IMG/VR virus record: IMGVR_UViG_3300020042_001397
Location: 1 to 62,488 of that record
DNA: 62,488 nt
Source of the DNA: a virus
Lineage: Duplodnaviria; Caudoviricetes
Strand: one strand, 5' to 3'
Made by a program: the position numbers and the translations under genes. This document shows, one piece after another, positions 122-53,455 of the stretch. The notes beneath the pieces are model-generated. The model had not been told where the DNA came from, searched no databases, and worked only from the letters and a program-made list of their open reading frames with translations. The stretch's first letter is position 1. Each line of letters starts with the position of its first letter.

Positions 122-496
122 TTACATCGCTGCCAGAAATTTCTTCTTCTGTGCCTTGGTCATCTTTGCGACGATCTTCATAGCTTCCTCGATCAAGTCG
201 ATCTCTTTCTTGCCACTAGATGCGCGCCGTGTAGTACCAGCAAGCATGAGTAGCACGTCGCGTTTCGTAGTCTTGGCTGCTTCGTACTTGGCGTGACTGC
301 TATCCATCATGACCTTGCCCGTTGATGACACCTTGAAAGCGCAGCCTGTCTTCGAGCACGCCCATTCGATGATGATCGGCGTGCAGTCCTCGATGGTCGT
401 GTAACCAGCCTTTTGCATACCCTCGATAAGTGCGACACGAGCGGATGCAAATTTATTCAATGCAGTAAATGCTGCTTGCTTGTTTGCTTTAGACAT
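122..496 (-). CDS. Early hypothetical protein, basic, 124 aa
   Basis: ORF with a GGAGA Shine-Dalgarno upstream of the ATG; TATAAT hexamer upstream (554-559, - strand). Confidence 0.8.
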   Translation of the reverse strand: MSKANKQAAFTALNKFASARVALIEGMQKAGYTTIEDCTPIIIEWACSKTGCAFKVSSTGKVMMDSSHAKYEAAKTTKRDVLLMLAGTTRRASSGKKEIDLIEEAMKIVAKMTKAQKKKFLAAM

Positions 497-858: not shown

Positions 859-889
859 AAAAAAAATCCCGAGCCTTGTGAGCCCGGGA
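859..889 (-). terminator. Intrinsic terminator on the - strand
   Basis: - strand reads TCCCGGGC-TCACAAG-GCTCGGGA followed by T8. Confidence 0.8.
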
Positions 890-943
890 CTAAAGCTAGG
901 ATAAACCCAACTGAAGGAGAAGCAAATGCTTGCGCACTCGCTA
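859..943 (-). ncRNA. Candidate ~85-nt small RNA with an anti-RBS seed (GCAUUUGCUUCUCCUU)
   Basis: Bounded by a TTGCAA-17-TACACT promoter and an intrinsic terminator; seed is complementary to start regions at 46629, 48261 and 50314. Confidence 0.6.
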
Positions 944-949
944 AATTTA

Positions 950-978
950 AGTGTACAGTACGCCCACCGAGGTTGCAA
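950..978 (-). promoter_or_regulatory. sigma70-like promoter for the candidate sRNA
   Basis: -35 TTGCAA (978-973), 17-nt spacer, -10 TACACT (955-950). Confidence 0.65.
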
Positions 979-990
979 TAGGACCTGCGC

Positions 991-1614
991 ATGCTAGACC
1001 ATTTAATTGATTTTGAGCCGGAGGTGCTTCCAGCCCCAACGGAGTTTGTGCCACTTGAAAAGGTAGGCACGGCGGATGCTATTGACGCCAAAGTAAAAAC
1101 GTCCGAGTGGTTAAAAGGCTTGGGCGCGGTAGACGACGAAGACATTGCCGACGAGCTGGGCGCACAGGCGGCCCGTAAAGCGTTTACATCCGTGGTAGCC
1201 GGTGTTGCACCAGAAACAACCCACACCGCCTTGGCGCAAGTTAAGACCCCCGCTGCGGTTGCACACCTTGTTGGAATGCTAACGGCCTACGATTGGGCGT
1301 TTGTAGAGCAGGCCAAAGAACTACGTGGCTACGCGGTGGCCAAGCTGCTCGAAGAGACCAACAACCCCAGCGCTAATATACGGTTGAAAGCCTTGGGCTA
1401 TTTAGGCAAGGTCACAGAGGTTGGCCTGTTCACCGACAAGATCGAAGTCAAAAAGACCGAGATGTCCGACGCTGAGATCGAACAGCGCATTAAAGACAAG
1501 CTCAGTCGTTTTGCACAGATTGTTGAAATCACCGACGTAACGGACATCCGAGAGATCGAAGAACTTAACGCACCTGCCGCTGATGACGAAATCATTAACA
1601 CCAGCGGAGATTAA
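991..1614 (+). CDS. Probable terminase small subunit
   Basis: 207-aa ORF directly upstream of and overlapping terL; assignment is positional. Confidence 0.55.
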   Translation: MLDHLIDFEPEVLPAPTEFVPLEKVGTADAIDAKVKTSEWLKGLGAVDDEDIADELGAQAARKAFTSVVAGVAPETTHTALAQVKTPAAVAHLVGMLTAYDWAFVEQAKELRGYAVAKLLEETNNPSANIRLKALGYLGKVTEVGLFTDKIEVKKTEMSDAEIEQRIKDKLSRFAQIVEITDVTDIREIEELNAPAADDEIINTSGD

Positions 1615-32876: not shown

Positions 32877-35279
32877 ATGATTAACACTAATCAGATCGCC
32901 ACGCAGTTAGCGCGCATGCCGGATCAGGCATTGCAACAGTTTGCGTTTATGCACAAAGACGACCCTTATAGCCTAGCAATGGCGCTGTCCGAGAGCAACC
33001 GCCGTAAAGAGATGCGCATGGGTGCGCAAGCAGTCGGTGGTCAACCGCAGCCTAAAGTTGTAGATCAGGCTATTCAAGAAATGGCACCGCCGCAAGTCAG
33101 CCGTCAGCTACCGGAAGAACAAGGCATCGGCGCTTTACCTGTGCCTAATATGCAGCGTATGGCGGATGGCGGTATTGTTGGATACGCTGGCGGTAAAGAA
33201 GTTAAGGCAGAAGACCCGCTTGCCCAGTACGAGCCAATGATTCGCGCAGAAGCTAAACGGCAAGGTATCGACCCTGAAGTGGCTATGCGTTTATTCCGTC
33301 AAGAATCTGGGGGAAATAAAAGCATCGTGTCGTCAAAAGGCGCGACAGGGCTTGGGCAGTTAATGGCCGCTGCTGCGGAAGAAATGGGCATAAAGCCAGA
33401 AGAACGCACAGACCCCGCTAAGAATATTCAAGCGTCTATCGGGTACTTTAAAAAGCAGCTTAATCGGTTTGGTACGTACGATAAAGCTGCCGCTGCGTAT
33501 AACTGGGGTCCGGGCAATTTAGAAAAGCATATTGCCAAGAGCATTAAAAAGAACCAAGATTTCCGGGTAGGCTTACCAAGAGAAACCGCTAACTATTTGA
33601 CCAGTGTAGTACCTGTGCCCTCCGCTCGTGCAGACGATGGTACTGCTGCGTCTTCTAAAAATAAACCTCCAGTAGTAGCTTCGCAACCCGCAACAACACC
33701 GCTAGGCGGCAGGGACGTTCCCGGCTCACCAGAAGCTATTGCGTATCAAGAACAGCTTAAAGCACAACGCGGTCCTGAGAAAAGCTATTTAAGGCAACGC
33801 GGCGAAGAGTTGTTAGGCGCGCCAGAAGCACTACTGTCTTTAGGATCAGGTGCGGCAGCTGTCATGGGTGCCGGCCAAGTACGTGCAGGCATTGATCGGT
33901 TGTTAGGCGGCAAAATGTCGGTAAACGAAGGTGTTGACCGGATGACGTTCTCCCCTCGTTCAGACGTAGGAAAAGAATCTTTAAGCCAAGCACATCGTGC
34001 GCTAGAAGATTTTAAAATCCCGCCGTTTATTCCCGGTGTTACTACTTCACGTTCTCGTCCGCGTTCTCCAGAAGCTGTTCGCGCTGCCGAAGCCGCGGCA
34101 CAAAAAGCCGCTATTGCTACCGCTAAAGCCGATGCGGCACAAGCCAGCGCCGCTAGAAGATCAGGCCCCGCGCAAGGGGAGTTGTTTACAAAAGAACAGG
34201 CTCCTATTCCTAAGAAGCCTGCTGCTAAAACACCCTTAAACGAAGCGATGCAGAAAGCCGTAGAAGACAATCGTCGTGCGGAACAGATGTCTTTATTTAC
34301 CGAAGCCGAGGCACCTGTGCCGTCTGCCCTAGACCGCGTGCTTAAAAAACGCGATCCTGCATTAGAAGCCGCGCAATCTGCCGCAGAAAAAAGGGCGCGT
34401 GGGGCGGAAGATGTTCGCAGCGCACGGGAAGCAGTGGAGAAACGCCAACAACTAGAAGCTAACAGAGAAGCGCTTAAAGCTAAAGAACGCGCCAAAAAAG
34501 CACAAGACGAAGCAGGCGCTAAAGACACGGAAGTTGTAAAAGAAAACATACTAGACGATATAGATAGACGTTACGATACGGAACAAGCTGCTCGCGTTGC
34601 TAGAGTACGTAGCGTTCTTCCGACCGCAGTGAGAGGTGCAAACGTTGAGCCTACTTATCCGGGCGTTACGTCGCAAGGGCCTTGGGAAGAAGACTTTACT
34701 GCACCAGAGACTAACTACCAGCCAGAAGCACCGGCAACCGCAGAAGTGCCGATTGAAGAACGCAGCCGCATGGAGCCAAAAGCGGAAGCCAAGAAAGGTT
34801 TTGGCTTCTCTGACGAAGATTTGCTGATGCTCGGCTTAACCATGATGTCCGGCGAATCTCCGTACGCCACACAAAACATAGGTAAAGCAGGTATTGCTAC
34901 CTTGAGCGCAAAGAAAGAACGTGAAAAATATGCTGCGGAACAGGCGCAGCGCGATATTATGGGTCAGTACTATAAGACAATGACGAGCACGTTGGGTACA
35001 AGTCCTGAAGAGCGCATGATAGAGCGGATGCAAAAAGACCCTAGCTACGCTGCGGCCATAGAAAAGTACCAAAGTGCTAAGTGGGCACCTAGAACGGAAA
35101 CCACCGAGCGCGATTTTATGAAACAATACGAGGCATTAACCAAAGCAAACCCGACATTTGGCATAGATAATCCTGATGCCGCGGTGTGGGTACAAAACCA
35201 AATGAGAACACGCGGGCTTACTGCGGGTGCAACGCCTAGCTTTACGTCCAGTTCTGCCAAATTTTTAGGATACGAATAA
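32877..35279 (+). CDS. Ejection protein with SLT lytic transglycosylase domain
   Basis: QESGG, GATGLGQLM and AAYNWGPG motifs. Confidence 0.85.
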   Translation: MINTNQIATQLARMPDQALQQFAFMHKDDPYSLAMALSESNRRKEMRMGAQAVGGQPQPKVVDQAIQEMAPPQVSRQLPEEQGIGALPVPNMQRMADGGIVGYAGGKEVKAEDPLAQYEPMIRAEAKRQGIDPEVAMRLFRQESGGNKSIVSSKGATGLGQLMAAAAEEMGIKPEERTDPAKNIQASIGYFKKQLNRFGTYDKAAAAYNWGPGNLEKHIAKSIKKNQDFRVGLPRETANYLTSVVPVPSARADDGTAASSKNKPPVVASQPATTPLGGRDVPGSPEAIAYQEQLKAQRGPEKSYLRQRGEELLGAPEALLSLGSGAAAVMGAGQVRAGIDRLLGGKMSVNEGVDRMTFSPRSDVGKESLSQAHRALEDFKIPPFIPGVTTSRSRPRSPEAVRAAEAAAQKAAIATAKADAAQASAARRSGPAQGELFTKEQAPIPKKPAAKTPLNEAMQKAVEDNRRAEQMSLFTEAEAPVPSALDRVLKKRDPALEAAQSAAEKRARGAEDVRSAREAVEKRQQLEANREALKAKERAKKAQDEAGAKDTEVVKENILDDIDRRYDTEQAARVARVRSVLPTAVRGANVEPTYPGVTSQGPWEEDFTAPETNYQPEAPATAEVPIEERSRMEPKAEAKKGFGFSDEDLLMLGLTMMSGESPYATQNIGKAGIATLSAKKEREKYAAEQAQRDIMGQYYKTMTSTLGTSPEERMIERMQKDPSYAAAIEKYQSAKWAPRTETTERDFMKQYEALTKANPTFGIDNPDAAVWVQNQMRTRGLTAGATPSFTSSSAKFLGYE

Positions 35280-38200
35280 TGCCTATTGCCCGCTTCCAGA
35301 TGCCTGACGGCCGGATAGCTCGCTTCGAAGTACCAGAAGGGACTACGCCAGAACAAGCGCAAGCAATGATAGAGCAGGCAATGGCGGGGGTGCAGCAGGC
35401 GGCTCCTGCACGTAAAAAGGGATTTGGCGCTGCGGTAAGTCAAGGCTTAGAGTCGTTGCTGTCTAGTGGGCAGACCGCATTAGGCGCTTTAACAAGCACG
35501 CCCGAGGAAGAAGTTGCAGCCGCAGCACTACGCCGTAGTCAAGAACGTTCCGGTAAGTACGCAGAACAAACCGGGCTAGACTTACTTAAAAAAGTGTACG
35601 AAGAAAAAGGGCTTGTTGGCGGCGCTAAAGAAGTAGTACGACAAGTTCCTTTAGCTATTGCAGAACAAGCTCCTAATCTAGCGGCTATGTTTGGCGGTGC
35701 TCGTCTTGGCGCTATGGCTGGTTCGGTTGCGGGACCCGGCGGTGCCGTTATTGGCGGTATTGGTGGTGCGTTAATTCCTTCGGCAGTACAGCAGTTTGGT
35801 ACCAACGTAGAACGCAGAGCCGCCGAAGGTTTGCCTGCGGACTTTAAAACTTCCGCCGCTACGGCCGTACCGCAAGCTGGGTTGGACGTTGCTGGCACAT
35901 TGATTCCGTTTGGCGGCAAACTTGTCACTAAGCTGACGGGCATCCCGATGGGTGCGTTATTTGGTAAAACTGCCGCACAAGCAGAAAAGATTGCTAACGA
36001 GCGTTTGTTGGCCACGCTGGCTAAAGGTACTGCCACGGGCATGGCCGCCGAGATTCCTACAGAGATTGCCCAGCAGATGTTAGAGCGTGCGCAAGCTGGC
36101 CTGTCGTTGGCTTCGCCAGATGCGTTGGAAGAGTATGGCCGTACGGCATACCAAGTCGGGCTGTTAGGTCCTTTGGGTGCAGTAGGTCGTGTGTCTGAAA
36201 AGATGGGCGCTCAGGAAGATATTCTTCAACGCCAGAAGGATGCGCAAGCTGCCACCGTCGCAGCCCTTGCTAGTGCACCAGCGCCAGAAGTAGCTCCCGA
36301 ACCAGCACCAGCCGAAGTAGCCCCATTACCGGCCGAAGCAGCACCTGCTGCTGAACCTTTGCCAACAGCCCTTGCACCGCTTACGCCTAAGACTGCACCT
36401 GCGGCTCCTGTTGAGTTAGCGCCTGCTGTTGAGCCTGTGTACACACCGCCTGCTGGGGACTTACCTAGCTTGATGGACCAGCACCGCACAATGGCGTTGA
36501 AGCTTGACCCGTTCGAGACACAACTGCAAGCGGCCGCTACTAAAGGTGATACCGCTGCCATCAATGCCCTCCTCCCACAGTACAACGAGCTCAAGACACA
36601 AGTTCAGCAGCTCGGTACGCACATTGAGAAGTTGGGTGGTACGACCGTTGACGCTGCCACATTCGAGACTACTTCCGCAGCAACCGTAACGGATATTGAT
36701 AAAAAAATTGCCGCTGCACAAAAGAAACTGGCTGAAGCTGGTGCGCTTGGTGACTTCGAAGCTATGCCGAAGCTGGGTACCAAATTAGATACGCTTAAAG
36801 CGGAGCGAGACAAACTAACTGCGGATATTGAGTCTCGGCGTAGTGTGTTAGCCGAGCAGCAAAAGGGTCTGACGCAGCGTGGTGAGACACGCCCACTGTT
36901 TACAGAAGCCGAAGCACCGGAACCAACGCGTGAGCAACAACAGAAGTACGCTGAGTCTCGCGGAGAAGTCTTTGCGGAGAAGCCCGAACAAGCTGCCACT
37001 ACAGAAGTTACTATTGCGCCTGAAAAAGAAACAGCCCCTACAGGTATGTACGACCTGTTCGGCGACTTCAATCTGCTGAACACGGCAATCAATGATCGTA
37101 ACCCACAGGTGCTGGCTAACATGCACCGTGCTCGTCAACGCGCAGATCAAAAAGCCTTGGAAGCAAGAAAGCCTACGCGTACACCGCGTGAGCAGGTAGC
37201 AGAACTGTTAGGCCCTCAGATTGGCAAAATTATTCGTCGTGAGCGTAACTACGATGTGCGCGAGATTGAGACGGGTGAGCGTAAGGGGCAGGAGGTTTAT
37301 GTCAGTGATGATATAGCCGCAGAGATTACACGTTTGCGTGATGTTGTTGAGAAACCTGTTGGTAACGCCAAGCGGTCTTTGTTGCAGCAACTGCATGATG
37401 AGTTTGATTTGCTGGAAAAACGTGACACTGCGTTACAAGAAGCTATTGCTGCCGGTGCATCAGAAGCTAAACTCACTACGTTGCGTAACCAAGTAGCTAC
37501 AGCCCAAACACGATACGAAAAGAAACTAGCGCGTGTTGCGCCGTACCGTGCGAAGCTTGACGCTCAACTAGCCAAGCTATACAAAGAAACAGAAATACAA
37601 ACGCCGCGTCAAAAAGAAGCGGAACTGCAAGCTTTGGGTACGTCTGCGCGTGCACTGTCACGCGAAGCAAAGCAAGCTAAGAAATCTACCAAGGCTGAGT
37701 TAGGTCTTAAAGCACAAGCGGAACTAGACGCCGTTCTTGACGATGTTGTGCGCGAAGTTGGCTACAAGACAGAAGAGTATCAAAAGCTGGTAGGACCGGC
37801 ACAAAAGAAACTCAACGATAAAGTAGAGCTACTTAAAAAGTTTGTTGATACTAGCGTAGCTAAACTCGAAGCCTTAAAAGCAGAAAAAGGCGAGGACTCG
37901 AAAAAGTACAACACCGCCGTTACTAATTTTATCAAGCAGAAAAAAGATCGCACTCAAGTTGTAGATGCTTTTGCTAAGAGCGTGGCCGCAGACCTTGAAG
38001 CTAAAGCCAGAGCTATTGGTGCAGCCAGCCCTGCCCTTGCCGAAGCGCAAGAAAAAGCCAAGAAAGAATTCGCAAAACGCGAGAAGCCCGTAGCCGAGGC
38101 GCAAGAGCCTGTGTACCAACGCGGCACGCAAGCCACTCGTAAGATAGCTAAGTTAAGTGAGATACGTACAGAATCCCCAGAAAGTCGCGCTGAGACTGCG

Positions 38201-41200
38201 CGGGGACAAGAACGGTTTGAAAGCGGTTTAAGCGAACAAAAAGGTTCGGCGTATGATTACGCGCAACGCCAAGAAGCGTTAGACCGTACGCGTAAGGCAC
38301 GGGAAGCCAAAGCTGCTAAAGGTACTGCCATGCAGGTGGCGATGACTAAGGCTGCACAAGAAAAAGTACTGAAAGAAGTAGCAAACCAAGACGTTGAAGA
38401 AAAGCGGTTTGCTATTGGTTCGGAAACAGAAAGTAAAGACTTGAGCAACGAGCAGGTCAAGCTGTTGGAAGATAACAAGCTGCAAGATGCGTACAAGTCA
38501 ATTTCCGAAGACGACACAAACCAACCGTTAAACCGTGCTGTGTCTTTGGCGTTGGAAGTTTTTGCGGACAATACCACCGTTAAGCTACACGACAAGTTGT
38601 ACGCTCCTGACGGACAAGAAGTGTTGGGCATGGCGACCAGCCGCGTAGTGGACTTGAGCCGTAACGGTGGACTGACGCAAGAAGTGTTGTTGCATGAAGG
38701 CACACACGCAGCAGTTGAGCGTGTCATCCAGATGGCGCAAGACGACATTACGTTGCTGAGTAAAGAGCAGCAGGCTGCGTACCGTGAACTGGAAGCGCTG
38801 TACAACTCGGCCAAGAAAGACCCGTCGATTACTAGCGCAAACGCTAAGAGTAACATTTCTGAGTTTGCTGCCGAAGTGCTGTCGAACGAGAATTTACAGA
38901 AACAACTTAAGCAGAAGAAGTGGCGCACGTCGGATGCGTTCCGTGGATTCGTTAGCATCATCTTAAAAATGATTGGTGTTACTAACGTCGATAACATGCT
39001 GGACGCATCAGTGTCCGCTGTAGAAGCGTTGATGATTTCTACTAGCTCCGCGCAGCCAGTAACGGAACAAGTACGCGCCAAACCTAAAGAAGATGTGGAC
39101 GTTGGCGTTTACGAAAAAACAAAAGGTGACTTTGGATTTAAGTCTAAGACAGAGCCGGTAACTGTTGCGTCTTCGTTTGTTGCGTCCAAGCCGTCCTTTA
39201 AAGACGAGCTTATGGGTAACGTCATGGGCTTAACAGGGCGTGTGCAGTTTGTTGACCAGTACGCTGCGCTGTCTGCTGCGTTCAAACAAGGCGTTGCTGC
39301 TGAACAAATCTCGTCGCTCGAAGCCGAACAAGCTGAGTTCTATTTACGTTTTGGCCAACAGACCAGCCAGTTTGCGGGTCAGGCGCTGACCAACGGACCA
39401 GTAGAGTTACGCAAAGCCGAAGGTGGTGGGTACATCTACGCAAGCAAGCCCGGCGCTAACATGGTGCAGGTAGCCGAAGCAGTCAGTAAAGCTAACGTAG
39501 GCAACGACACGCAGACCGAAGCAATGTTCACCGCCTATCTGGCAGGTAAGCGTGCGGAAGTTGTGGGTTGGGATAAGCTGAACTTTGATAATCCGAAGCT
39601 GGCGCAAAAAGAATACAACGACGTATTAAATATTCTTAAAGCAGATAAGCAAGCAGACGCTGCCTTTAAGGAAGCTGCCGACATTTATCAGCAGTACAAC
39701 AACGGCCAGCTTGATCTACTAGTGCAGACCGGATACATGTCTGAGAAGCTGGCGGCCGATCTCAAGAAGACGCCATATGTTCCGTTCTATCGCGCTAACC
39801 GTGACGGCAACGTGGAGCTAGTGATTGATAAAGAAAATATCGTCACGCTCTCCAACATCAAGGATGAGCCACAGCTTAAAGCGTTAGTCGGGGACAACAC
39901 GCAGATTCAGCCGGTCTTTACTAGCGCTGTGCAAAACACGTTCATGATAACTAACATGGCGTTGCGCAACCAGATGATGAAAGACTCGTCGTTCTTGCTG
40001 AAGAAGATGGGTATTGCCAGCACGCTTAGTAAAGGCCCCGGCCCGGGCGGTCCTGATACTGTACGCTTTAAGATCAAGGGCGAAGATCACTTTGTGGTAA
40101 TCGACACCGACATGTACGGCATCCCTGCCGACCTTATCATCAAGGGCATGGAAGGTATTAAGACTACGCTACCTGCGGTGTTCAAGCTGATGGGCATACC
40201 GGCTGACGTACTGCGTAAGTTTGTTACCCGTAACCCGGCGTATGCGATCAAGCAGGCGTTCCGTGACCCGTTGACTGCGTGGATGACTACAGGTACTGAC
40301 GGTGTGCCTGTGCTCAACTCGTTTAAAGAACTGAGTAAGATGATGGCCGGCCGCAGCGAAGAACAAGCTAAGTTGATGGCCTCGGGCGCGATCAGCAGCA
40401 ACGTGTTTAGCGGTGACGAGCGCGACATGTCGAAGTTCCTGAAAGACTTGTCGGTAGGCAAGATGGGTTGGGACAAAACGATGGCCAAGCTTGACGCCTT
40501 CGCTATGCAAGGTGATGCAGCTACGCGTGCGGTTGTGTACAAGGACTCGCTCAATAAGGGAATGTCCGAGATGCAGGCGCTCTTGCGTACGCTTGAGTCA
40601 ATGAACTTTAGCCGCCGGGGACTCTCCCCTAGCATGCAGGTACTATCAACAATTATCCCGTTCTTTAATGCACAGATTCAGGGTCTCGACGTTTTGTATC
40701 GCGCATTCACTAACCAGATGCCGCATAGCGAACAGCTAAAGATTAGGCAGAAAATGTTGGTGCGCGGCCTGATGTTAGCCGCCGGTACGATGGCCTACGC
40801 TGCGATGATGCAGGATGATGAAGCCTACAAACGCGCCAAGCCTGAAGAACGTCTGGCCAACTGGTTTGTGTACATCCCGGGCGTGGATGAGCCGATGCGT
40901 GTACCTATTCCGTTCGAGATGGGGTACTTGTTTAAGGCGTTGCCGGAAGCAATATTCAATATGGCGGCTGATGATGAGCGCTCATCTGACATCACTAAGG
41001 GTATGGGCAAATTGCTGGCGCTGTCCAACCCGTTCGCGTTGCCGCAAGCAGTTAAGCCGTTGACTGAAGTGGTGCTGGGCAGGTCGTTCTTTAGTGGGGA
41101 TATTGAGTCGTCGCGGGAGCAACAGACTATGCTGCCGACCGAACGCTACAGAGATTCGACCACCGAGTTTGCCAAGCTGCTCGGTAGTGCTACGGGGGAC

Positions 41201-41704
41201 GCTGGCTTAACGCCAATTAAGATTGACTACTTGATGCGTGGGTACATGGGCGGCTTGGGTCTTGCGCTGGTGTCGCTGGCCAATCCTATCCTGAACATGG
41301 AAGGCAAAGCAGAAGTTGCCGACCCGACTAAGAAGATCAGCAAGATGCCGTTCATTGGCGGTATGTTCCAGCCTATCGAGGGACGCGGTACGTTAGACGC
41401 AGCCTATGAGCGTATGCAGGAAATACAGCAAACAAAGGGTTCGTTTAACAAGCTGATCGAAGAAGGCAAGAAGGACGAAGCTAAAGCCTTTGCTCTCGAG
41501 AACATCGACAAAATATCTGGGGCGTCGATGTCTGGCAGTGTGCAGAAGCAGCTAGGCGAGTTGGCCAAGTATCGGCGTCAGATCATTGCATCCCCGCGCT
41601 TAACTACCGAGCAGAAGGATACGTTGCTGGAGAAGCTAGATTCCGCACAGGTTAAGATAGCGCGGAACTTTATAACTGTAACCGATAGAACCACACGCCA
41701 ATAA
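35279..41704 (+). CDS. Large internal virion / polyvalent protein (zincin motif, LPD38-like C-terminus)
   Basis: 2141 aa; LLHEGTH...EFAAE zincin-like motif; IPFFNAQIQG and RVPIPFEMGY C-terminal region. Confidence 0.75.
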   Translation: MPIARFQMPDGRIARFEVPEGTTPEQAQAMIEQAMAGVQQAAPARKKGFGAAVSQGLESLLSSGQTALGALTSTPEEEVAAAALRRSQERSGKYAEQTGLDLLKKVYEEKGLVGGAKEVVRQVPLAIAEQAPNLAAMFGGARLGAMAGSVAGPGGAVIGGIGGALIPSAVQQFGTNVERRAAEGLPADFKTSAATAVPQAGLDVAGTLIPFGGKLVTKLTGIPMGALFGKTAAQAEKIANERLLATLAKGTATGMAAEIPTEIAQQMLERAQAGLSLASPDALEEYGRTAYQVGLLGPLGAVGRVSEKMGAQEDILQRQKDAQAATVAALASAPAPEVAPEPAPAEVAPLPAEAAPAAEPLPTALAPLTPKTAPAAPVELAPAVEPVYTPPAGDLPSLMDQHRTMALKLDPFETQLQAAATKGDTAAINALLPQYNELKTQVQQLGTHIEKLGGTTVDAATFETTSAATVTDIDKKIAAAQKKLAEAGALGDFEAMPKLGTKLDTLKAERDKLTADIESRRSVLAEQQKGLTQRGETRPLFTEAEAPEPTREQQQKYAESRGEVFAEKPEQAATTEVTIAPEKETAPTGMYDLFGDFNLLNTAINDRNPQVLANMHRARQRADQKALEARKPTRTPREQVAELLGPQIGKIIRRERNYDVREIETGERKGQEVYVSDDIAAEITRLRDVVEKPVGNAKRSLLQQLHDEFDLLEKRDTALQEAIAAGASEAKLTTLRNQVATAQTRYEKKLARVAPYRAKLDAQLAKLYKETEIQTPRQKEAELQALGTSARALSREAKQAKKSTKAELGLKAQAELDAVLDDVVREVGYKTEEYQKLVGPAQKKLNDKVELLKKFVDTSVAKLEALKAEKGEDSKKYNTAVTNFIKQKKDRTQVVDAFAKSVAADLEAKARAIGAASPALAEAQEKAKKEFAKREKPVAEAQEPVYQRGTQATRKIAKLSEIRTESPESRAETARGQERFESGLSEQKGSAYDYAQRQEALDRTRKAREAKAAKGTAMQVAMTKAAQEKVLKEVANQDVEEKRFAIGSETESKDLSNEQVKLLEDNKLQDAYKSISEDDTNQPLNRAVSLALEVFADNTTVKLHDKLYAPDGQEVLGMATSRVVDLSRNGGLTQEVLLHEGTHAAVERVIQMAQDDITLLSKEQQAAYRELEALYNSAKKDPSITSANAKSNISEFAAEVLSNENLQKQLKQKKWRTSDAFRGFVSIILKMIGVTNVDNMLDASVSAVEALMISTSSAQPVTEQVRAKPKEDVDVGVYEKTKGDFGFKSKTEPVTVASSFVASKPSFKDELMGNVMGLTGRVQFVDQYAALSAAFKQGVAAEQISSLEAEQAEFYLRFGQQTSQFAGQALTNGPVELRKAEGGGYIYASKPGANMVQVAEAVSKANVGNDTQTEAMFTAYLAGKRAEVVGWDKLNFDNPKLAQKEYNDVLNILKADKQADAAFKEAADIYQQYNNGQLDLLVQTGYMSEKLAADLKKTPYVPFYRANRDGNVELVIDKENIVTLSNIKDEPQLKALVGDNTQIQPVFTSAVQNTFMITNMALRNQMMKDSSFLLKKMGIASTLSKGPGPGGPDTVRFKIKGEDHFVVIDTDMYGIPADLIIKGMEGIKTTLPAVFKLMGIPADVLRKFVTRNPAYAIKQAFRDPLTAWMTTGTDGVPVLNSFKELSKMMAGRSEEQAKLMASGAISSNVFSGDERDMSKFLKDLSVGKMGWDKTMAKLDAFAMQGDAATRAVVYKDSLNKGMSEMQALLRTLESMNFSRRGLSPSMQVLSTIIPFFNAQIQGLDVLYRAFTNQMPHSEQLKIRQKMLVRGLMLAAGTMAYAAMMQDDEAYKRAKPEERLANWFVYIPGVDEPMRVPIPFEMGYLFKALPEAIFNMAADDERSSDITKGMGKLLALSNPFALPQAVKPLTEVVLGRSFFSGDIESSREQQTMLPTERYRDSTTEFAKLLGSATGDAGLTPIKIDYLMRGYMGGLGLALVSLANPILNMEGKAEVADPTKKISKMPFIGGMFQPIEGRGTLDAAYERMQEIQQTKGSFNKLIEEGKKDEAKAFALENIDKISGASMSGSVQKQLGELAKYRRQIIASPRLTTEQKDTLLEKLDSAQVKIARNFITVTDRTTRQ

Positions 41705-41867
41705 GACCCTTGCTAACGCCCGCCACTGCGCGGGCGTTATGCACATCAAGCCGCATAGCTTGAATCAACCCTTCTTGCCTAACGGTTTGGGTATCAAGGC
41801 AGGGGACAAAGAACCCCTGCCCTTTCTTCAGCTTATTCCACGGATAGTGTACTTGCAAGCTCGTCAT
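41670..41867 (-). CDS. Small hypothetical protein
   Basis: YPW..LKKGQGFFVPC; last gene of the - strand arm, 3' end overlaps the giant + strand gene. Confidence 0.7.
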   Translation of the reverse strand: MTSLQVHYPWNKLKKGQGFFVPCLDTQTVRQEGLIQAMRLDVHNARAVAGVSKGLIGVWFYRLQL

Positions 41868-44736
41868 CTTCTACCTTGCGCGTTATCTTAATCACTGGCA
41901 CACGCATCTGTGGTCCTTTCGTCTTGGCCATCATGTCCTTCTTGGGTAGGTACGTGACCATGAACAGCGCTTCTAGTTGCCGTTTAAAGTCAGAATAACC
42001 GAAGCTCATGGATGAACAGAACGATTTAAGCAGCCGCTCCTCGATGTAGTAGTCGATGTGGTCTGGCACTACGCCGTGCTCCACCCGCCCCATAACATGC
42101 GAACGTGTAGTCGATGCGTCGATAGCTCCACCGTTGCCCATCTCGGCCAGTATGCCGCCTGATGCGCCGAACTTAACTACGATGAAGTTGCCGTAGAACT
42201 CGCGTGTAAATGAGTTTAGTATGTCCTCTGCGCTGCGGCTGCTGGACTTGATGTTGCTACGCATGTAGCCAACTGTCTTTTTAAAGTACGACAAGATAGC
42301 TTCGAGCGGGAAGTCCACCACACCGGCATGCGCCGAGTTCATAACGATACCTACCGCCATACATGCGCCGATACCTGCCATCCAGAAACGCTCGTCATTC
42401 GTAGCAGCGAAATCCTTGTACGTGTTTCGGACAACCTCTGGCACCATCGTTTTTAAGAACGATACATTCTTGGCCATGTAGTCAGCCAACAGGTGACCGG
42501 CAACCGCATAGTTGCGCGCTAGGGACTTGATGATCTCGATCTCGTGCGGCTCCCACGACAGGTCTTGGTCCATGATGAACTCTAAGAGACGGCGCAGTTC
42601 ACCTTCTGACGCATGCTTACGGCCGCCGGTCAGGTAGTCCACAACGTGTGTGTTCGACGACATAATCGCTACCGTCATCCACGTAGATAAGTTCATCCGT
42701 TCCTTGTTGGAGCCGGACTCCATACGCTCTTTACCACGGCCTTCTGTCATGTCGAGCAGGAACGCAGGGAACCATTCGAAATCTGCCCGGTTCTTGCTGG
42801 TGATCTCGTCAGTAATCAACGGGAAGCTATTGAGCAGACCAAGGCGCTGCTGCATGGCAACGGGAGATGTGCCCTTACCTGTGCGGTAGTGAACCGGATG
42901 ACCCCAGACAGAAGCCGCACCTTCGAGCGCTAATGATTTACCTGTGCCTGATTCGGTTGAGCCGCAGTGATACGTCATGCCGTAGATACCTGTGAAGCGC
43001 ATGAGCGGCGCAGAAGCGCCAGCCAGAATGATGGCCAGATGCCCGTACAACTTCTTACGTATCAGTAGGTTGATGAACTCACGCCATGCCTCGATGCTGC
43101 CGGTAGGCTGCGAGTTGGACACGATATTCTCAAGCCCCGGCATCGGCACTTCCACCGGCAGACCAGTTGAATATATCTTGCCAGCAAACACGAACGTGTC
43201 GTTGTCTTGCCAGCCGCAGTTAGATGGTACGCGCAGCGGTGCTTTTTCTGTGCTCATTTTTTCCACGCAAGCCCTAATGTAATCGAACAGGTTCTTGTCA
43301 TTGCCAGAACCAAAAGCAGCAATAATGTTTTGTTGTGCTAAGTGCTTAACTGTTTCGTCCTTACTGACTACTGCCTTCTGTGGCAGCGTCACGGTCTGAG
43401 CGCCATCCTTACGCAACGCCAGCATGTGTATCGTGTGTTCGCCAGCATTGTTCAAGATGTCCACAGGGAACAGGTCGTATGGCAGCAACTGAATCTGACG
43501 CGTGATCTTCTTGCCCTCTGCGTCTTCATCTTGGCGCTCCATGAATATGCCGCCGTGTGTACCGTACGCATAACCGCGTGGTGACTCAGGGCGTAACACC
43601 TTGCGTACTTCCTCGGATGTCGGGGACGCAATGACCTCAACTACTTTCTCCGATGTATCGACCGTCGTTACACGCCCGAGTGCTAACGGATTAGTAATCT
43701 TGCCCCAGTGCTTGCACGATGTGCACACGCCGGGATTCTCGCTGTCGAACTTAACGCATGGGTACGGGCCCTTGATCTCAGCTAACTTAGTACGCATCCG
43801 ATCTTCTGTGTACGGGTGCAACTCTGTGAGCCAGACAACAGCGCGGTCACCATCGGAACACTTCTGCGCCAAGCTCATCATCCCGCGCCACAACGGCTCC
43901 ATCCCATCTTCGGTTGCGTTCTCTACGTAGTACTGTAGTTGTGCGCAGCCACGCCCTTCTTGCGTCTCTTTGTAAATCTTGCCGAACTCGGTCGCAGTAT
44001 TCTCGAACAACTTAACTGCCGTAGTGGTAGCAGCAGTCGGTCGAGTGCCGGGTAACGTGAGGCTTGTGCTCGGCGTAGCTTTAACCGCTAACGGCGTACT
44101 GGTCAGCATGCTGGCAATATGCTTGGCCATCGTCTCAAAATCAAACGTATCGCCTTCAGCAACAATCTTTACCGGCCGTGGCTTGTCGTACTTCTTCTTA
44201 AAGTTAGTCGTGCTAGGTATGCGTAATACCCGCGCTGCATCGGCTGTCACCGTGTAGTCAATGACCAGACGTTGCTGTGCACACAAACGCTTTAGGTTCT
44301 CGGCTGCTGGTTTCCAATCAGCAATCTCTACGTCTTGCTCAAACGGCCAGTAGCAATGCAGCCCACCACCGGACGAGATGACGTAAGGCGAACCAAACAA
44401 GTCCAGACCTGTCTCAGCTAAGAAGCCAGCCAATGCAGTAGCCGCCGCCTTACGCGTAGCGTAGCCGTCCATGTCGATAAAGAAAGAACGAATGTAGCGA
44501 GCGTTAGCTGCGATGCGCCGATCCTTGTTGCCCTTCATCAAAGCAACCTTCTCATCGAAGGAAGCCAAGCCGAAGTAAACGTCGCACTCGTTGCTAACCC
44601 AAGTGTCTACCGTCGGGTAAAATTCGGCCACATCTTCTACAAAGACATGATCTTTCTTCTTAGTTAATTCTGCCGCGCAGTAATATCCGTGACCCGGAGA
44701 CGGCAAAACAACCGCTAGAAATTCAAGCGGAGTCAT
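41833..44736 (-). CDS. DNA primase-helicase (AEP/RepB-like primase, Cys cluster, DUF927-like region, P-loop)
   Basis: FFIDMD, SSGGGLHCYW, DAARVLRIP; Walker A ESGTGKS and ITDE. Confidence 0.85.
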   Translation of the reverse strand: MTPLEFLAVVLPSPGHGYYCAAELTKKKDHVFVEDVAEFYPTVDTWVSNECDVYFGLASFDEKVALMKGNKDRRIAANARYIRSFFIDMDGYATRKAAATALAGFLAETGLDLFGSPYVISSGGGLHCYWPFEQDVEIADWKPAAENLKRLCAQQRLVIDYTVTADAARVLRIPSTTNFKKKYDKPRPVKIVAEGDTFDFETMAKHIASMLTSTPLAVKATPSTSLTLPGTRPTAATTTAVKLFENTATEFGKIYKETQEGRGCAQLQYYVENATEDGMEPLWRGMMSLAQKCSDGDRAVVWLTELHPYTEDRMRTKLAEIKGPYPCVKFDSENPGVCTSCKHWGKITNPLALGRVTTVDTSEKVVEVIASPTSEEVRKVLRPESPRGYAYGTHGGIFMERQDEDAEGKKITRQIQLLPYDLFPVDILNNAGEHTIHMLALRKDGAQTVTLPQKAVVSKDETVKHLAQQNIIAAFGSGNDKNLFDYIRACVEKMSTEKAPLRVPSNCGWQDNDTFVFAGKIYSTGLPVEVPMPGLENIVSNSQPTGSIEAWREFINLLIRKKLYGHLAIILAGASAPLMRFTGIYGMTYHCGSTESGTGKSLALEGAASVWGHPVHYRTGKGTSPVAMQQRLGLLNSFPLITDEITSKNRADFEWFPAFLLDMTEGRGKERMESGSNKERMNLSTWMTVAIMSSNTHVVDYLTGGRKHASEGELRRLLEFIMDQDLSWEPHEIEIIKSLARNYAVAGHLLADYMAKNVSFLKTMVPEVVRNTYKDFAATNDERFWMAGIGACMAVGIVMNSAHAGVVDFPLEAILSYFKKTVGYMRSNIKSSSRSAEDILNSFTREFYGNFIVVKFGASGGILAEMGNGGAIDASTTRSHVMGRVEHGVVPDHIDYYIEERLLKSFCSSMSFGYSDFKRQLEALFMVTYLPKKDMMAKTKGPQMRVPVIKITRKVEDDELASTLSVE

Positions 44737-44754
44737 AAAATCCTCGGGGTTAAG

Positions 44755-44937
44755 TTACTCGAACAGTTCTAACTGTGTATCGCAAAGCGGTGGGTAGATA
44801 GCGCCAATAGAACGTGCATACCGATTCAGAAGTTCAAGCTGGAAGGAAGTAGGCAGCCCACGCTGATGGTCCCACTCGGTCTCGCACAGACGGATGAACT
44901 CTTGTTTCGTTAAGGCTTGAGGTTGTATTCCTGACAT
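44755..44937 (-). CDS. Small protein ending in QLELF
   Basis: GGAG RBS before MSGIQP; C-terminus DTQLELFE. Confidence 0.7.
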   Translation of the reverse strand: MSGIQPQALTKQEFIRLCETEWDHQRGLPTSFQLELLNRYARSIGAIYPPLCDTQLELFE

Positions 44938-45188
44938 ATCTTTCTCCATGCTTCGTCAGCCGTCTTAGCGTGCTGCATTATTTTTAAAAGAAGTTCCACG
45001 CGATCTTGGTACGCTACGAAAACGTCCTTGCCTGCAAACCAGTTGTAAACAGTCTGTCGGGTAACGCCTAACGCATACGCAATCTTGGTCACGGGGAAAT
45101 TAAGATGCACTGCCCAACGCCCTAGCCGGTTGCCCGGCGTCTTAGGGGATGCGGCAACAAGATCAATAATTCGTTGTGAGTAGGCCAT
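44910..45188 (-). CDS. Cro-like HTH DNA-binding protein
   Basis: VTKIAYALGVTRQTVYNWF helix-turn-helix. Confidence 0.8.
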   Translation of the reverse strand: MAYSQRIIDLVAASPKTPGNRLGRWAVHLNFPVTKIAYALGVTRQTVYNWFAGKDVFVAYQDRVELLLKIMQHAKTADEAWRKICQEYNLKP

Positions 45189-45205
45189 TATGTTTTATGT
45201 TAGGT

Positions 45206-45243
45206 GGGGTACTCGCTGCACCTTTCGGCATCCGCTTTCCCCC
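45206..45243 (-). ncRNA. Candidate cis-regulatory hairpin with a loop E / sarcin-ricin-type motif
   Basis: GGGG-GAAA-GC..CC-GAAA-GG..GC-GAGUA-CCCC in an intergenic 5' UTR. Confidence 0.5.
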
Positions 45244-45250
45244 GTGAGAG

Positions 45251-46210
45251 TTACTCGTCGTCCCAGTCGGCTACGATGTCGGCAAGGTTGCCTTTCTTGG
45301 CTGGTACGGCGGACGCTTTAGAAGCTGGCTTGCGAACTTCTGGCTCCTCGTCGTCAGCAGTTTCTTCTACTGGCGCGGCTTTAGCTTTCGGTGCAGCCTT
45401 GGCTTTCGGTGCTGGTGCATCTTCTTCGTCGGCCACCACAGGGGCTTTACCCGGTAACGCTAACGCAGGCTTACTCTTAACACCATCCATCTGTGCCACA
45501 GTCATCACGACTGCGCGGCTGGCATCGGCAGAGTCAGCTTGGTTCTTAACAATATCGTACTCGGCATCGGTCAACCAACGCATAGGCTGGAAGTGCAGCT
45601 TCGGTGACTCGGCCTTAGTATCAAAGCGCATACGGGTGACGATCTGCTCTGGATTGATCGGTGGGTTCTGCAATGCCAGATAGCGAGCGTATGCTTGCAG
45701 TGGGCGCTTGTCGCCTTCTTCCTTACCGAACACAGACGTAGCTGGCAGGGTCAACTGCAACACATCGCCGGTAGGATTGTTCTCAAGCACCACGGCCAGA
45801 CGTTGTTGATAACGGCATGCGCGGCTATTGCCTTGGCCTGAACCAGCAATGTTCTGTGGGCACGACATGCAGGTTTCAGCTTGCTTGCCGGTAGCGGTAG
45901 CGTCTGGGCGCTCGCCATCATTCGACCAGCAGTCAGGACCAGAGATAGCCTCGGCATCATACGACTTAGCGTAGAACACGCGGCTGACTTTGGAAGCAGC
46001 CTTAACAATAATAACGTCAAGGTGGCGCTCATCAACGGTCGCCAGTTCTTTACCGCCAGCGATCAGACGGAACACACCGCCCTTAATCGAGATACGCTTG
46101 ACGCTGTTGCCTACACCACCGCCGGTCAGGGCGCGTGCTGTATCGGAGAGTTCGTTGTTGCGAGCGAAGGCGGGTACCGACGCTGGATTGAAAGCCATAA
46201 TATTGGACAT
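45251..46210 (-). CDS. Probable single-stranded DNA-binding protein
   Basis: Cys cluster (DCWS, CMSC, RAC), A/K/P linker and acidic aromatic tail ADWDDE; lies within the replication module. Confidence 0.6.
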   Translation of the reverse strand: MSNIMAFNPASVPAFARNNELSDTARALTGGGVGNSVKRISIKGGVFRLIAGGKELATVDERHLDVIIVKAASKVSRVFYAKSYDAEAISGPDCWSNDGERPDATATGKQAETCMSCPQNIAGSGQGNSRACRYQQRLAVVLENNPTGDVLQLTLPATSVFGKEEGDKRPLQAYARYLALQNPPINPEQIVTRMRFDTKAESPKLHFQPMRWLTDAEYDIVKNQADSADASRAVVMTVAQMDGVKSKPALALPGKAPVVADEEDAPAPKAKAAPKAKAAPVEETADDEEPEVRKPASKASAVPAKKGNLADIVADWDDE

Positions 46211-46220
46211 AGTATTTATC

Positions 46221-46631
46221 TCACTTAGTGGTGGTTGGTTTTGTTACGCGGATGTCGAACTCCGTAGTGGAGTTCAGTCCGGGGGGCACAAGCCCGGGGT
46301 TTTCTTGCAAGAAGTTGTGCATGTTGGTCTGTGCGATGCGCTTCTCTAACAGATCGACGACATCGTTGGCCACAATAAACTTCTTAAAAGAATCCCAGTC
46401 TTGCGTGTTGTACCGTGTCTTTGTTGCCAGCGACACAGTTCCAAAATCTGTACGTACGGACGAAACGCCTAACGCCTTCATCTGGTCTTTCATTGCGAAC
46501 TTAACTTGCTCTTGCATAGCCTTCAGTTCTTCTAGCTTGGTGTCGTACTCTTGCGTGAGTAAATCGACCTTTGCTTTGATCTTCCGGTACACCTTGGCAA
46601 GCTGATCTAACGGCACTATTTCATCAGTCAT
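46221..46631 (-). CDS. Replication-module hypothetical protein
   Basis: Coiled coil followed by DWDSFKKFI...LLEKRI; AGGAGAAGCAAATG RBS. Confidence 0.8.
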   Translation of the reverse strand: MTDEIVPLDQLAKVYRKIKAKVDLLTQEYDTKLEELKAMQEQVKFAMKDQMKALGVSSVRTDFGTVSLATKTRYNTQDWDSFKKFIVANDVVDLLEKRIAQTNMHNFLQENPGLVPPGLNSTTEFDIRVTKPTTTK

Positions 46632-46654
46632 TTGCTTCTCCTAATTATTTTGTG

Positions 46655-46670
46655 TGTCAAGGATTAGACA
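46655..46670. promoter_or_regulatory. Putative operator TGTCAA-N4-TAGACA
   Basis: Imperfect inverted repeat just downstream of a TTGCAA-16-TAGTAT promoter-like site; 14/16 identical to 57989-58004. Confidence 0.5.
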
Positions 46671-46704
46671 TACTACATAGATTTTTTACGATTGCAAACC
46701 CCTT

Positions 46705-48264: not shown

Positions 48265-48402
48265 TTACTTCTCCTGTTTTTTGGCGGCTTCTTGTCCGGC
48301 CTTAAATGCTGCATCCCATACAAACTTAGCAGCGTTAGGTCCGAGTACTCTGCGCTCTACAATCGTCAAGGACTTCCACCACTCTTGAAACTCTTTACTC
48401 AT
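48265..48402 (-). CDS. Small hypothetical protein, 45 aa (not in the ORF track)
   Basis: MSKEFQEWWKSL...AWD-like (FVWDAAFKAG); ATGA coupling. Confidence 0.65.
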   Translation of the reverse strand: MSKEFQEWWKSLTIVERRVLGPNAAKFVWDAAFKAGQEAAKKQEK

Positions 48403-48635
48403 TTATTATCTCCACGGTTTGCTTTGACGCTGCGCATGCGCAAGTTACCTTTGGTTGATGTGCCACCGCTGCGCAGTGGTGTGATGTGGTCTACGTCTTT
48501 ACCGTCGCCCTTGGTAGCAGCGCCGGTCTTTTCCATAATGCGCCTAGCCTTAACTCTCTCTGCGCGTTTCTTAACTTGCTCGGGTTTGCCGTGGTATTCG
48601 GCATACTCTTTTTTATAGTCTCGTTTGTTTGTCAT
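48399..48635 (-). CDS. Small HNH endonuclease
   Basis: DVDHITPL..GG....NLR......NR. Confidence 0.82.
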   Translation of the reverse strand: MTNKRDYKKEYAEYHGKPEQVKKRAERVKARRIMEKTGAATKGDGKDVDHITPLRSGGTSTKGNLRMRSVKANRGDNK

Positions 48636-48642
48636 GTCGTGC

Positions 48643-48840
48643 CTACCTTATGTAGTGGGGTGAGATTGTCTGTACTGCATATGGTTTGTTGTAGTGCCTT
48701 GTATCCGGGTCATTTGGATGAAACGGCGTAAACTGTTTTAACGCCTCGCTGCCGCTGTTAGCCACCACAACAGTTACTTTAATTGGCAATCGGTTACGCC
48801 ATTCTTTACGCGGTGTGTGAATACACAAGTAAGAAAACAT
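48643..48840 (-). CDS. Hypothetical protein
   Basis: 65-aa ORF filling the gap between the two nucleases; AGGAG upstream. Confidence 0.55.
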   Translation of the reverse strand: MFSYLCIHTPRKEWRNRLPIKVTVVVANSGSEALKQFTPFHPNDPDTRHYNKPYAVQTISPHYIR

Positions 48841-48842
48841 AG

Positions 48843-49508: not shown

Positions 49509-49749
49509 TAGAGGGCTCCATTTTTTCGCAGCAACGAATGACTGCCATACCTATGTGTCCCATGTAACCACCGCAAAGGGAACTCTCACTTCGTGTGTAG
49601 CAAGAAATTTCTCCTTTGTGTGGGCAATCTTCCGCATGCAAGGGGAGTGCGCCGTCTGTACAACCGGGATACGGTTTAATCGCTACCGCCCTAAACCGCA
49701 GGAGTTCTACTTGGCCTGAATCTTCGTTGTAGTATGTTTCGGTAATCAT
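49501..49749 (-). CDS. Cys-rich hypothetical protein
   Basis: 82 aa with six Cys; TAATG coupling. Confidence 0.6.
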   Translation of the reverse strand: MITETYYNEDSGQVELLRFRAVAIKPYPGCTDGALPLHAEDCPHKGEISCYTRSESSLCGGYMGHIGMAVIRCCEKMEPSNG

Positions 49750-50075: not shown

Positions 50076-50316
50076 CGAGAGTCTCCATTAGTTTAGTCAG
50101 CTTAATTTCTAAGAACGTAATAACACCGCGCTGTTCATGCAGTTGTATTTGCTGCCTCTTGTTAGCTTCAACGGCTTTCGTAAACTCCGTGTCTAGATGT
50201 CTGTATTTCATACTTACGGTGTTGTACTGCTCAACAAGCGTTGAGTTGTTTGCTGCGCACACTTTGTATTTTGCATTGAGTGCGGTGTATAGTTTTTTAT
50301 AGTCTTTTACAGCCAT
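50062..50316 (-). CDS. Coiled-coil hypothetical protein
   Basis: 84 aa; AAGGAGAAGCAAATG RBS. Confidence 0.7.
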   Translation of the reverse strand: MAVKDYKKLYTALNAKYKVCAANNSTLVEQYNTVSMKYRHLDTEFTKAVEANKRQQIQLHEQRGVITFLEIKLTKLMETLDAKP

Positions 50317-50326
50317 TTGCTTCTCC

Positions 50327-53452: not shown

Positions 53453-53455
53453 CCG

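Follow-up and report, generated by a model that had tools for sequence, protein, structure and literature searches.

A predicted minus-strand small RNA upstream of terS in an uncultured phage clade, with complementarity to early-gene start sites

The small RNA sar of phage P22 is transcribed from its own promoter to an intrinsic terminator, and it blocks translation by pairing with a ribosome-binding site. It lies opposite a single target, ant, to which it is fully complementary. Here, we focus on a predicted RNA of comparable design which is encoded on the minus strand upstream of terS in the IMG/VR virus record IMGVR_UViG_3300020042_001397. The stretch that was analyzed, referred to below as the window, is this one record in full (62,488 bases; linear by its classification, with an estimated completeness of 97%). 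A first-pass annotation made from its letters alone had proposed that a promoter-to-terminator unit at positions 978 to 859 encodes a trans-acting RNA which silences early genes by covering their ribosome-binding sites. Like sar, this would be a small phage RNA with a promoter and an intrinsic terminator of its own. Unlike sar, it faces an open reading frame (ORF) that is unconserved, and its candidate targets are several genes at a distance of 45-50 kb. When the sar-type cis-antisense arrangement was tested, the opposite-strand ORF proved to be absent, or to have another frame or length, in the relatives.

Other phage systems resemble the locus in part. Lambda OOP is also a short, terminator-ended phage transcript; its promoter, of the constitutive type, lies in a regulatory region between genes. 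However, OOP is cis-antisense to the cII message, while no conserved sense-strand target overlaps the RNA described here. T4 RegB is similar in proposed function, as it allows the phage to shut off its own early messages via the GGAG of their ribosome sites. RegB is a protein nuclease, whereas RNA-RNA pairing with no known cleavage step would be at work here. The c4 RNA of P1 and P7 belongs to a temperate-phage immunity circuit and controls one operon (ant). In the parts of a review that bear on it, c4 uses sequences exposed in a defined fold to pair with complementary sites that surround a ribosome-binding site, which is the feature it shares with the RNA studied here; the phage small RNAs in those parts come from temperate phages or prophages and act on single targets or host genes (PMC12197685). 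The present RNA differs from c4 in that its gene stands alone between the replication module and the structural one, and in that it combines a generic anti-Shine-Dalgarno (anti-SD) core with several candidate targets. By analogy, the nearest phage RNAs in mechanism would be P22 sar and P1/P7 c4, each of which masks a ribosome site and serves one operon of a temperate phage, and the nearest system in proposed function T4 RegB.

Bacterial anti-SD small RNAs (sRNAs) show the same combination of an exposed C/U-rich motif, flanking hairpins and an intrinsic terminator; unlike them, the RNA here is phage-encoded. Across the whole window, no Rfam family reaches its gathering score. The best minus-strand resemblances, located at 852-924, score 19.7-23.6 bits against cut-offs of 39-50 and comprise RF02278, RF00519, RF02837 and RF02399. 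The Betaproteobacteria toxic sRNA RF02278 (19.7 bits, E 0.89, 859-922 on the minus strand) stays below its gathering score of 50, mmgR/suhB RF00519 (23.6 bits, E 0.068, 852-924 on the minus strand) below 41, and anti-hemB RF02837 (21.8 bits, E 0.05) below 49.5. Anti-SD-type motifs are carried by mmgR, anti-hemB and the toxic sRNA. The likeness to RF02278, RF00519, RF02837 and NsiR1 (RF02399) is one of kind, without membership.

The unit sits in the divergent region that separates the early/replication module on the minus strand from the late/structural module on the plus strand. Its parts are:

859..942, minus strand: predicted small RNA of ~84 nt, from the covariance model and the fold z-score, with the 5' end placed from the -10 hexamer

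950..978, minus strand: putative sigma-70-like promoter read from the sequence, with a -35 element TTGCAA (978-973), a 17-nt spacer and a -10 element TACACT (955-950)

921..942, minus strand: stem-loop 1 (SL1), from folds and alignment, with a 9-bp stem (942-934 with 929-921), a GCAA tetraloop (933-930) and the 3' arm GCAUUUGCU

913..920, minus strand: single-stranded anti-SD stretch UCUCCUUC, unpaired in the minimum free energy (MFE) fold and part of the near-invariant core UUGCUUCUCCUU

894..912, minus strand: stem-loop 2 (SL2), from folds and alignment, with a 7-bp stem (912-906 with 900-894)

859..891, minus strand: intrinsic terminator found by a scan, with an 11-bp stem (891-881 with 875-865; 6 G-C pairs), a loop of 5 and eight U (866-859)

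Both ends of the unit had been named in the first-pass annotation and are present in the sequence as described. The promoter hexamers and their spacing can be read directly, and the terminator scan lists a minus-strand element at 891-865 with 11 pairs, a loop of 5 and a T run to 859; the first two of the eight U lie inside the stem as the scan draws it. The unit itself, previously given as ~85 nt, holds up as a conserved, structured and minus-strand-specific RNA gene, with a length of ~84 nt (942..859).

Evidence for such a gene comes from the relatives of the phage. At least 598 stretches in IMG/VR carry a related terL, and the best 80 of these were examined. Among them, 70 loci with at least 200 nt upstream of terS gave 65 distinct upstream regions, window included, and the TerS proteins of the relatives are 49-68% identical to that of the window, two near-identical contigs aside. 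The small-RNA unit is found at the same place in 64 of the 65 distinct regions. L061 is the sole relative without it, and unrelated sequence stands there instead. The shared arrangement on the minus strand consists of TTGnnn, 17 nt, TAnAnT, a stem 7 nt further on, UUGCUUCUCCUU, a second hairpin, and a G+C-rich hairpin with a U run. The -10 element conforms to TAnAnT in 64/65 distinct relatives, TTG lies exactly 17 nt upstream of it in 55 of these 64 (shifted by a base in the rest), and the stem begins exactly 7 nt past the -10 hexamer in 54/55 sequences.

A covariance model was built from 19 sequences. When MAFFT and RNAalifold were applied to 19 sequences, SL1 came out whole and SL2 and the terminator in part, while the variable stems were misaligned; for this reason, the structure was given by hand and the sequences were realigned with the model. 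Exactly one match per source was obtained in 65 of 81 sources, every time on the strand opposite terL. The window matches with 71 bits (E 1.7e-13) and holds no second copy in its 62 kb. Two related genomes, G002 and G003, have one copy each, and G001 has one in addition to a 13-bit match (E 0.27) that was taken for noise. The closest cultured phages by TerL, at only ~50% identity, are the Pelagibacter phages HTVC027P and HTVC023P and Phage DSL-LC04. The model found no match in the whole records of DSL-LC04 and HTVC027P, where the gene order upstream of terL differs. A blastn search of window positions 500-1700 against the phage collection gave no match. The pattern GCAAGNNNTTGCTTCTCCTT occurs in 63 stretches of cellular genomes, which is by estimate about the chance number for 17 fixed bases; none of the 63 matches the model, and they offer no clue to the host. 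A literature search, with supplementary files outside its scope, turned up nothing published on this RNA or on small RNAs from HTVC023P-type phages.

The fold of the unit depends on the strand. As a minus-strand RNA, the window sequence reaches an MFE of -36.6 kcal/mol (z -5.41; 0/200 shuffles as stable), while the plus-strand reading of the same stretch gives -17.5 kcal/mol (z -0.51). In an alignment of 53 distinct rows with 25 pairs, which was fitted to the model's structure so that its pair counts lean to the model, 91.1% of 1252 pair cells are paired compared to 70.2% in shuffles (0/500 reach the observed value). Pairing falls to 41-49% with slid partners, and double changes are seen in 22/25 pairs. 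SL1 corresponds to helices 1 and 2 of the alignment (97.5% and 85.9% paired; double changes in 8/9 pairs; many G-U), SL2 to helix 3 (95.9% paired; 6/6 pairs) and the terminator to helix 4 (8/10 pairs). A T run follows the terminator hairpin in all 55 distinct sequences, and UUU stands ahead of the terminator stem in most rows. As an independent check on the model-fitted alignment, alignment-free folds of single sequences show at least three hairpins in 51/55, the first stem at the predicted first nucleotide in 54/55, and CUCC fully unpaired in 47/55 distinct relatives. A second CCUCC motif occurs in the 3' arm of SL2 in L022, L031, L036/L037, L038, L044 and L050, where SL2 has the form GAGG...CCUC(C).

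In each of the 55 distinct sequences, the minus-strand RNA folds more stably than the plus-strand RNA, with respective means of -36.0 and -26.5 kcal/mol (Wilcoxon p 1e-10). The pair cells include 246 G-U and 14 A-C, and the paired share is accordingly 91.1% on the minus strand compared to 72.5% on the plus strand. Given this imbalance, the fold works solely as minus-strand RNA; in the window itself, SL2 with its two G-U pairs forms only on this strand. The A run that precedes the hairpin on the plus strand is the U run following it on the minus strand, which makes the hairpin an intrinsic terminator. We take a minus-strand RNA as established as far as comparison of sequences allows. That 942..859 is a real structured minus-strand RNA, representing a small-RNA family which had not been filed before and which belongs to a large clade of uncultured phages, is judged very probable.

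The 12-nt core UUGCUUCUCCUU is identical in 49/53 distinct rows. The 5' arm of SL1, on the other hand, varies (GGUGA, GGCGA, AGCGA, GGCAA and others), and its pairing is kept largely by G-U. With the core fixed while the opposite arm varies, the 3' arm of SL1 is constrained in sequence beyond what the fold needs, and the stem facing it is weak. This pattern fits a seed which would nucleate on the exposed heptamer and then invade the hairpin. The seed had been given as a single stretch, 929-914; the folds divide it, with UCUCCUU(C) at 920-913 single-stranded and GCAUUUGCU at 929-921 paired as the 3' arm of the 9-bp hairpin.

The sites to which this seed is complementary are:

46629..46642, minus strand: predicted target, ribosome site and AUG of a 136-aa DUF7307 gene; 14/14 to RNA positions 929-916; cofold net gain -11.9 kcal/mol

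48261..48275, minus strand: predicted target, ribosome site and AUG of a 519-aa SNF2-type helicase; 15 pairs including one G-U; cofold net gain -13.6 kcal/mol

50314..50328, minus strand: predicted target, ribosome site and AUG of the 84-aa ORF that comes right after the DNA polymerase gene; 15/15; cofold net gain -12.8 kcal/mol

53647..55022, minus strand: cassette made up of small early genes, each gene behind AAGGAGAAG(AAC), with 9-nt core matches; sites at 55022, 54706, 54332, 54127 and 53655

All motifs and coordinates reported in the first-pass annotation agree with the sequence. The complementarity it had described for ORF 46631 (14/14), ORF 50316 (15/15) and the SNF2 helicase (15 pairs with one G-U) falls in each case on the start codon of the gene (136, 84 and 519 codons, respectively), and the core AAGGAGAAG is present both in the 53.6-55 kb cassette and ahead of ORF 62108. 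The 16-mer AAGGAGAAGCAAATGC at 914-929 on the plus strand reappears on the minus strand, with at most two mismatches, at 46628-46643, 48261-48276 and 50313-50328; the 4 matches in the window compare to 0.11 expected, and 0/100 shuffles reach 4. The window holds 10 copies of AAGGAGAAG, one at 914 on the plus strand and nine that precede start codons on the minus strand. The core AGGAGAA is found 20 times in the window, with 18 occurrences on the minus strand, in front of start codons, and 2 on the plus strand, and is the generic ribosome site of minus-strand genes. Any antisense copy of such a site can therefore be expected to match the core, and the only unusual part of the match is its extension through the spacer and AUG. 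Within the cassette, an identical 22-nt junction AGCCAAGCTAAAGGAGAAGAAC precedes four of the genes (53655, 54332, 54706 and 55022), and the fifth (54127) shares only AAGGAGAAGAAC. From its sequence, 53647-55022 looks like a cassette array with stereotyped start sites.

Ten related contigs were fetched whole and scanned for target sites. Sites of 14 nt matching the own seed with at most one mismatch are present in early-gene sense in G000 (3), G002 (3), G005 (2) and G010 (1), with ATG at the same offset in each. No such site was found in late-gene sense in the scanned contigs apart from the RNA gene itself. Put differently, the exposed UCUCCUU is complementary to the ribosome sites of several mRNAs, in that sites of 14-15 nt lie at three start codons of the window and 1-3 lie in three other genomes. 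Net cofold energies, in which intramolecular structure is counted, are lower at early than at late start sites (Mann-Whitney p 0.0027), and the SNF2-type helicase has the best net gain of 73 start sites. The two gene classes also differ in their start sites as such. In the six genomes G000-G005, A follows GGAG at 71/110 early and 11/63 late start sites (Fisher p 2e-9); early-strand sites favor GGAGAA, while late-strand sites favor GGAG followed by C or T. Early and late genes thus use different ribosome-site flavors, the early one, AAGGAGAA, being what the exposed UUCUCCUU matches.

If seed and start sites belong together, they should change together, and co-variation was one of the checks that had been proposed for the anti-ribosome-site reading. 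In L023 and L043, which have the seed CUUUCUCC, early flanks of ~4.2 kb hold 8 GGAGAAAG[CT] start sites and 0 GGAGAAGC. The 37 loci with CUUCUCC hold 14 GGAGAAAG[CT] and 15 GGAGAAGC, and differ from L023/L043 with a Fisher p of 0.012. L023 also has two 14/14 matches to its own variant seed. L014 (seed U, ...GUUUCUCC) and its close relative L017 (seed C, ...GCUUCUCC) have A and G, respectively, at an orthologous start site. In several seeds, CAU is replaced by CGU, by which G-U pairing to AUG is kept, while the ATG of the plus strand is lost (ACG). When seeds were permuted among 37 loci, the own-match sum observed (21) compared to 10.0 +/- 3.4, with 5/5000 permutations reaching 21; since the genomes are related, both the permutation and the Fisher tests overstate independence. 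Near-perfect 14-nt complements at early start sites and nowhere else, together with L023/L043, L014/L017 and the permutation result, are what stands of the proposed pairing and its co-variation. The part that does not extend to all relatives concerns G001, G003 and the UCAUUGC class, discussed below.

How would such an RNA act? The transcript of ~84 nt would be made from the sigma-70-type promoter at 978-950 and ended by the intrinsic terminator at 891-859. Its exposed UCUCCUU heptamer would nucleate on ribosome sites of the AAGGAGAA type, which mark the early/replication genes of the minus strand. Where the site runs on as GCAA(A)UG, the duplex could spread into the weak, G-U-rich 5' hairpin and cover the start codon. 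Binding of the 30S subunit would thereby be blocked and translation lowered for the DUF7307 protein, the SNF2 helicase and the 84-aa ORF, with weaker effects at genes that have 8-9-nt matches. Given the exposed anti-SD heptamer, translational masking is the most likely mode of action to be predicted. A U-rich stretch ahead of the terminator hairpin and a 3' U tail are also present, both of which are features of Hfq-dependent small RNAs, and the terminator hairpin with its U tail presumably resembles known Hfq-binding ends. Whether the main job of the RNA is trans pairing with the phage's own early start sites is, judged from the comparisons above, an evenly balanced question, and it is the reading we prefer; the conserved gene, its fold, its strand and the complementarity are observed by comparison, whereas the transcript, the repression of targets and its timing are what we infer from them.

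Several observations weigh against this preferred reading. The long seed is half buried in SL1, which in the predicted fold must open for a long duplex to form. No 14-nt site for the own seed is present in G001 or G003, whose seeds are CUAUCUCC and CUCCUCC, respectively, even though these genomes are 98-99% complete. The largest seed class, UCAUUGCUUCUCC (20/65 model hits), has no 14-nt site in the 53-kb G004, where a single own 13-nt match with at most one mismatch was found; eight flanks of 2.6-4.3 kb from this class show no own 13-nt match. GGAGAAAG start sites also occur in loci with the standard seed. More generally, the start sites of the clade are stereotyped among themselves, and an inverted copy of one would thus match others without any function. 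Gene calls for the genome scans came from a crude ORF picker which misses genes below 50 codons; four GGAGAAGCAAATG sites in G006 escaped it and were seen by motif search alone. As for the promoter, it matches 8/12 consensus positions in a manual count, and it is absent from the scan list because the scan needs 9/12. Finally, the transcript itself is a prediction from comparison. Five sequencing runs hold part of the region, with a best share of words of 0.27, and four runs, represented by Logan contigs only, include a 174-nt contig over 832-1001 (X3), a 312-nt contig from 953 (X1) and a 151-nt contig over 884-963 (X2). These contigs carry no strand, ends or level, DNA carry-over is possible, and the thin X1 cover of 805-938 is no evidence either; RNA-library contigs therefore decide nothing on expression.

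The best surviving alternative accepts the RNA and moves its targets. In this case, the RNA would act mainly on host mRNAs or on translation generally, as UCUCCUU pairs with any strong AAGGAGA site, and the phage matches would be by-products of an inverted start-site copy. That just the 7-8-nt core is single-stranded, that this core is kept even where extended phage matches are missing (G004 and L075-type flanks), and that every Rfam family with a sub-threshold resemblance is a bacterial anti-SD RNA would agree with it. However, the constraint extends into the 3' arm of SL1, where UUGCU is invariant while its partner varies; seed and start sites co-vary in L023, L043 and L014/L017; and early and late phage start sites differ at the discriminating position. 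We consider host targets as the main role unlikely.

A different view is that the locus acts mainly at the level of DNA or transcription. Two further features of the locus lie on the plus strand:

930..959, plus strand: putative promoter for terS and the late operon by sequence inference, with TTGCGC (930-935), an 18-nt spacer and TACAGT (954-959)

926..997, plus strand: 23-codon ORF, an upstream ORF (uORF) relative to terS; a listed ORF, judged non-coding

The plus-strand arrangement TTGC(G/A)(C), 17/18 nt, TAnAnT is found in 64/65 distinct relatives, with TACACT as the -10 element in 48/64. Transcription from it would start near 966 and leave terS a leader of ~25 nt. The -35 element is the same DNA as the loop of SL1 (GCGCAA), and the two promoters have 2 nt of their -10 hexamers in common, within a palindrome that reads AGTGTACACT in most relatives; elsewhere in the window, this palindromic -10 motif does not occur beyond chance (2 matches, 5.6 expected). 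The overlap suggests that RNA polymerase can occupy just one of the two promoters at a time. From here, one could argue that occupancy of the minus-strand promoter excludes the terS/late promoter, that the terminator just stops transcription before the early promoter region, and that the RNA has no function in trans. Both promoter-like arrangements are kept in 64/65 relatives, and a TTGACA...TATAAT promoter, read by eye, lies directly past the terminator in relatives. A spacer transcript, though, would not need three hairpins conserved through compensatory changes, a 12-nt core that hardly varies or an anti-SD stretch that is exposed, all of which are left unexplained, and we regard this explanation as improbable.

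Still less probable is that the unit is a leader with an attenuator, where transcription from 978-950 usually stops at 891-859 and some factor permits read-through into the early gene 496..122 and beyond. The unit does lie upstream of the early genes in the same orientation. Against this, the first early gene lies ~360 nt beyond the terminator, with more promoter-like sequence in between, a near-consensus promoter stands right behind the terminator in relatives, and the single-sequence folds include no alternative antiterminator fold.

The first-pass annotation had itself raised an alternative reading of the same bases, the 23-codon uORF at 926-997. In the form considered here, AAGGAGAAGCAAATG would be the ribosome site of this leader ORF, and terS translation would be coupled to it. 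This ORF exists, has a strong site, and its stop overlaps the terS start (ATGCTAG). A well-spaced start codon, 3-10 nt after GGAG, is present in 40/65 relatives, and the frame enters terS in five. Yet the start codon is absent in 25/65, the lengths range from 1 to >36 codons, each of the three frames relative to terS occurs, and the relatives share no conserved peptide; the uORF was thus rejected as a conserved coding feature. In addition, the plus strand lacks a fold (z -0.51), 246 G-U cells become mismatches in it, and we know of no plus-strand role for an A run before a hairpin. A functional plus-strand reading is accordingly very improbable. In L024, L060, L070, L077 and L078, the seed-complement ORF is in frame with terS and has no stop, and could give an N-terminally extended TerS.

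As for an origin-associated short transcript (a primer or activator RNA, a role that has been discussed for lambda oop RNA) beside iteron-like repeats (unique 14-nt direct repeats at 722-735 and 752-765) and AT-rich palindromes (807-832), the origin function of the repeats is conjecture and both the anti-SD core and the start-codon matches would go unexplained, so that we hardly credit it. The repeats are exact copies of TATCACATAGACAA, 30 nt apart and unique in the window (2 found, 0.21 expected), and the palindromes beside them lie just downstream of the RNA on the minus strand. Based on their position between the RNA gene and the first early gene, the repeats may be iterons or operator sites.

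Returning to trans pairing with the phage's early start sites, a broader picture can be drawn, although only tentatively. In an abundant clade of uncultured phages, one RNA might serve as a class-specific translational off-switch that reads a code, AAGGAGAA (often ...GCAAAUG), which the late genes lack. It would zip through its weak hairpin over the start codon, and its synthesis would be mechanically coupled to the start of late transcription at one polymerase site. If true, this would be an RNA counterpart of T4 RegB, and the RNA may control an entire temporal class of genes in its own phage by means of the ribosome-site code that they share. It would also be a structured RNA family outside Rfam in nearly every examined member (64/65 distinct regions) of a large environmental clade. 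The picture offers a testable model for post-transcriptional timing in phages without a cultured host as well as a reason for early and late ribosome-site flavors within one phage, and the covariance model can be used to annotate this RNA in metagenomes.

The remainder of the window follows the division marked by the unit. Plus-strand genes run from 991 to 41704 and include the TerS-like gene (991; no family hit), terL (1583) and the portal gene (3122), up to the last gene of the module:

35279..41704, plus strand: 2141-codon ORF, last gene of the plus-strand module

Minus-strand genes occupy 62141..41833 and then 496..122. This module encodes a family-A DNA polymerase (52297), the SNF2-type helicase (48264), a DUF927 primase/helicase (44736) and the DUF7307 protein (46631). 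No tRNA genes were found in the window. The palindrome GGGTCAC-N-GTGACCC occurs three times (101-117, 587-602 and 60560-60574), with AATCGGG words around the first two copies. The copy at 118-100 on the minus strand, just after a 124-aa gene, scored as terminator-like, and the motif may be an operator or a terminator by its sequence. At 57966-58026, TTGACA hexamers stand back to back (TGTCAAATGCTTGACA) and give rise to strong promoter-like sites in divergent orientation (plus strand 11/12, minus strand 10/12). In relatives, a like palindrome (TGTCAAACGTTGGACA in most, TTTGACA in some) is located directly past the small-RNA terminator.

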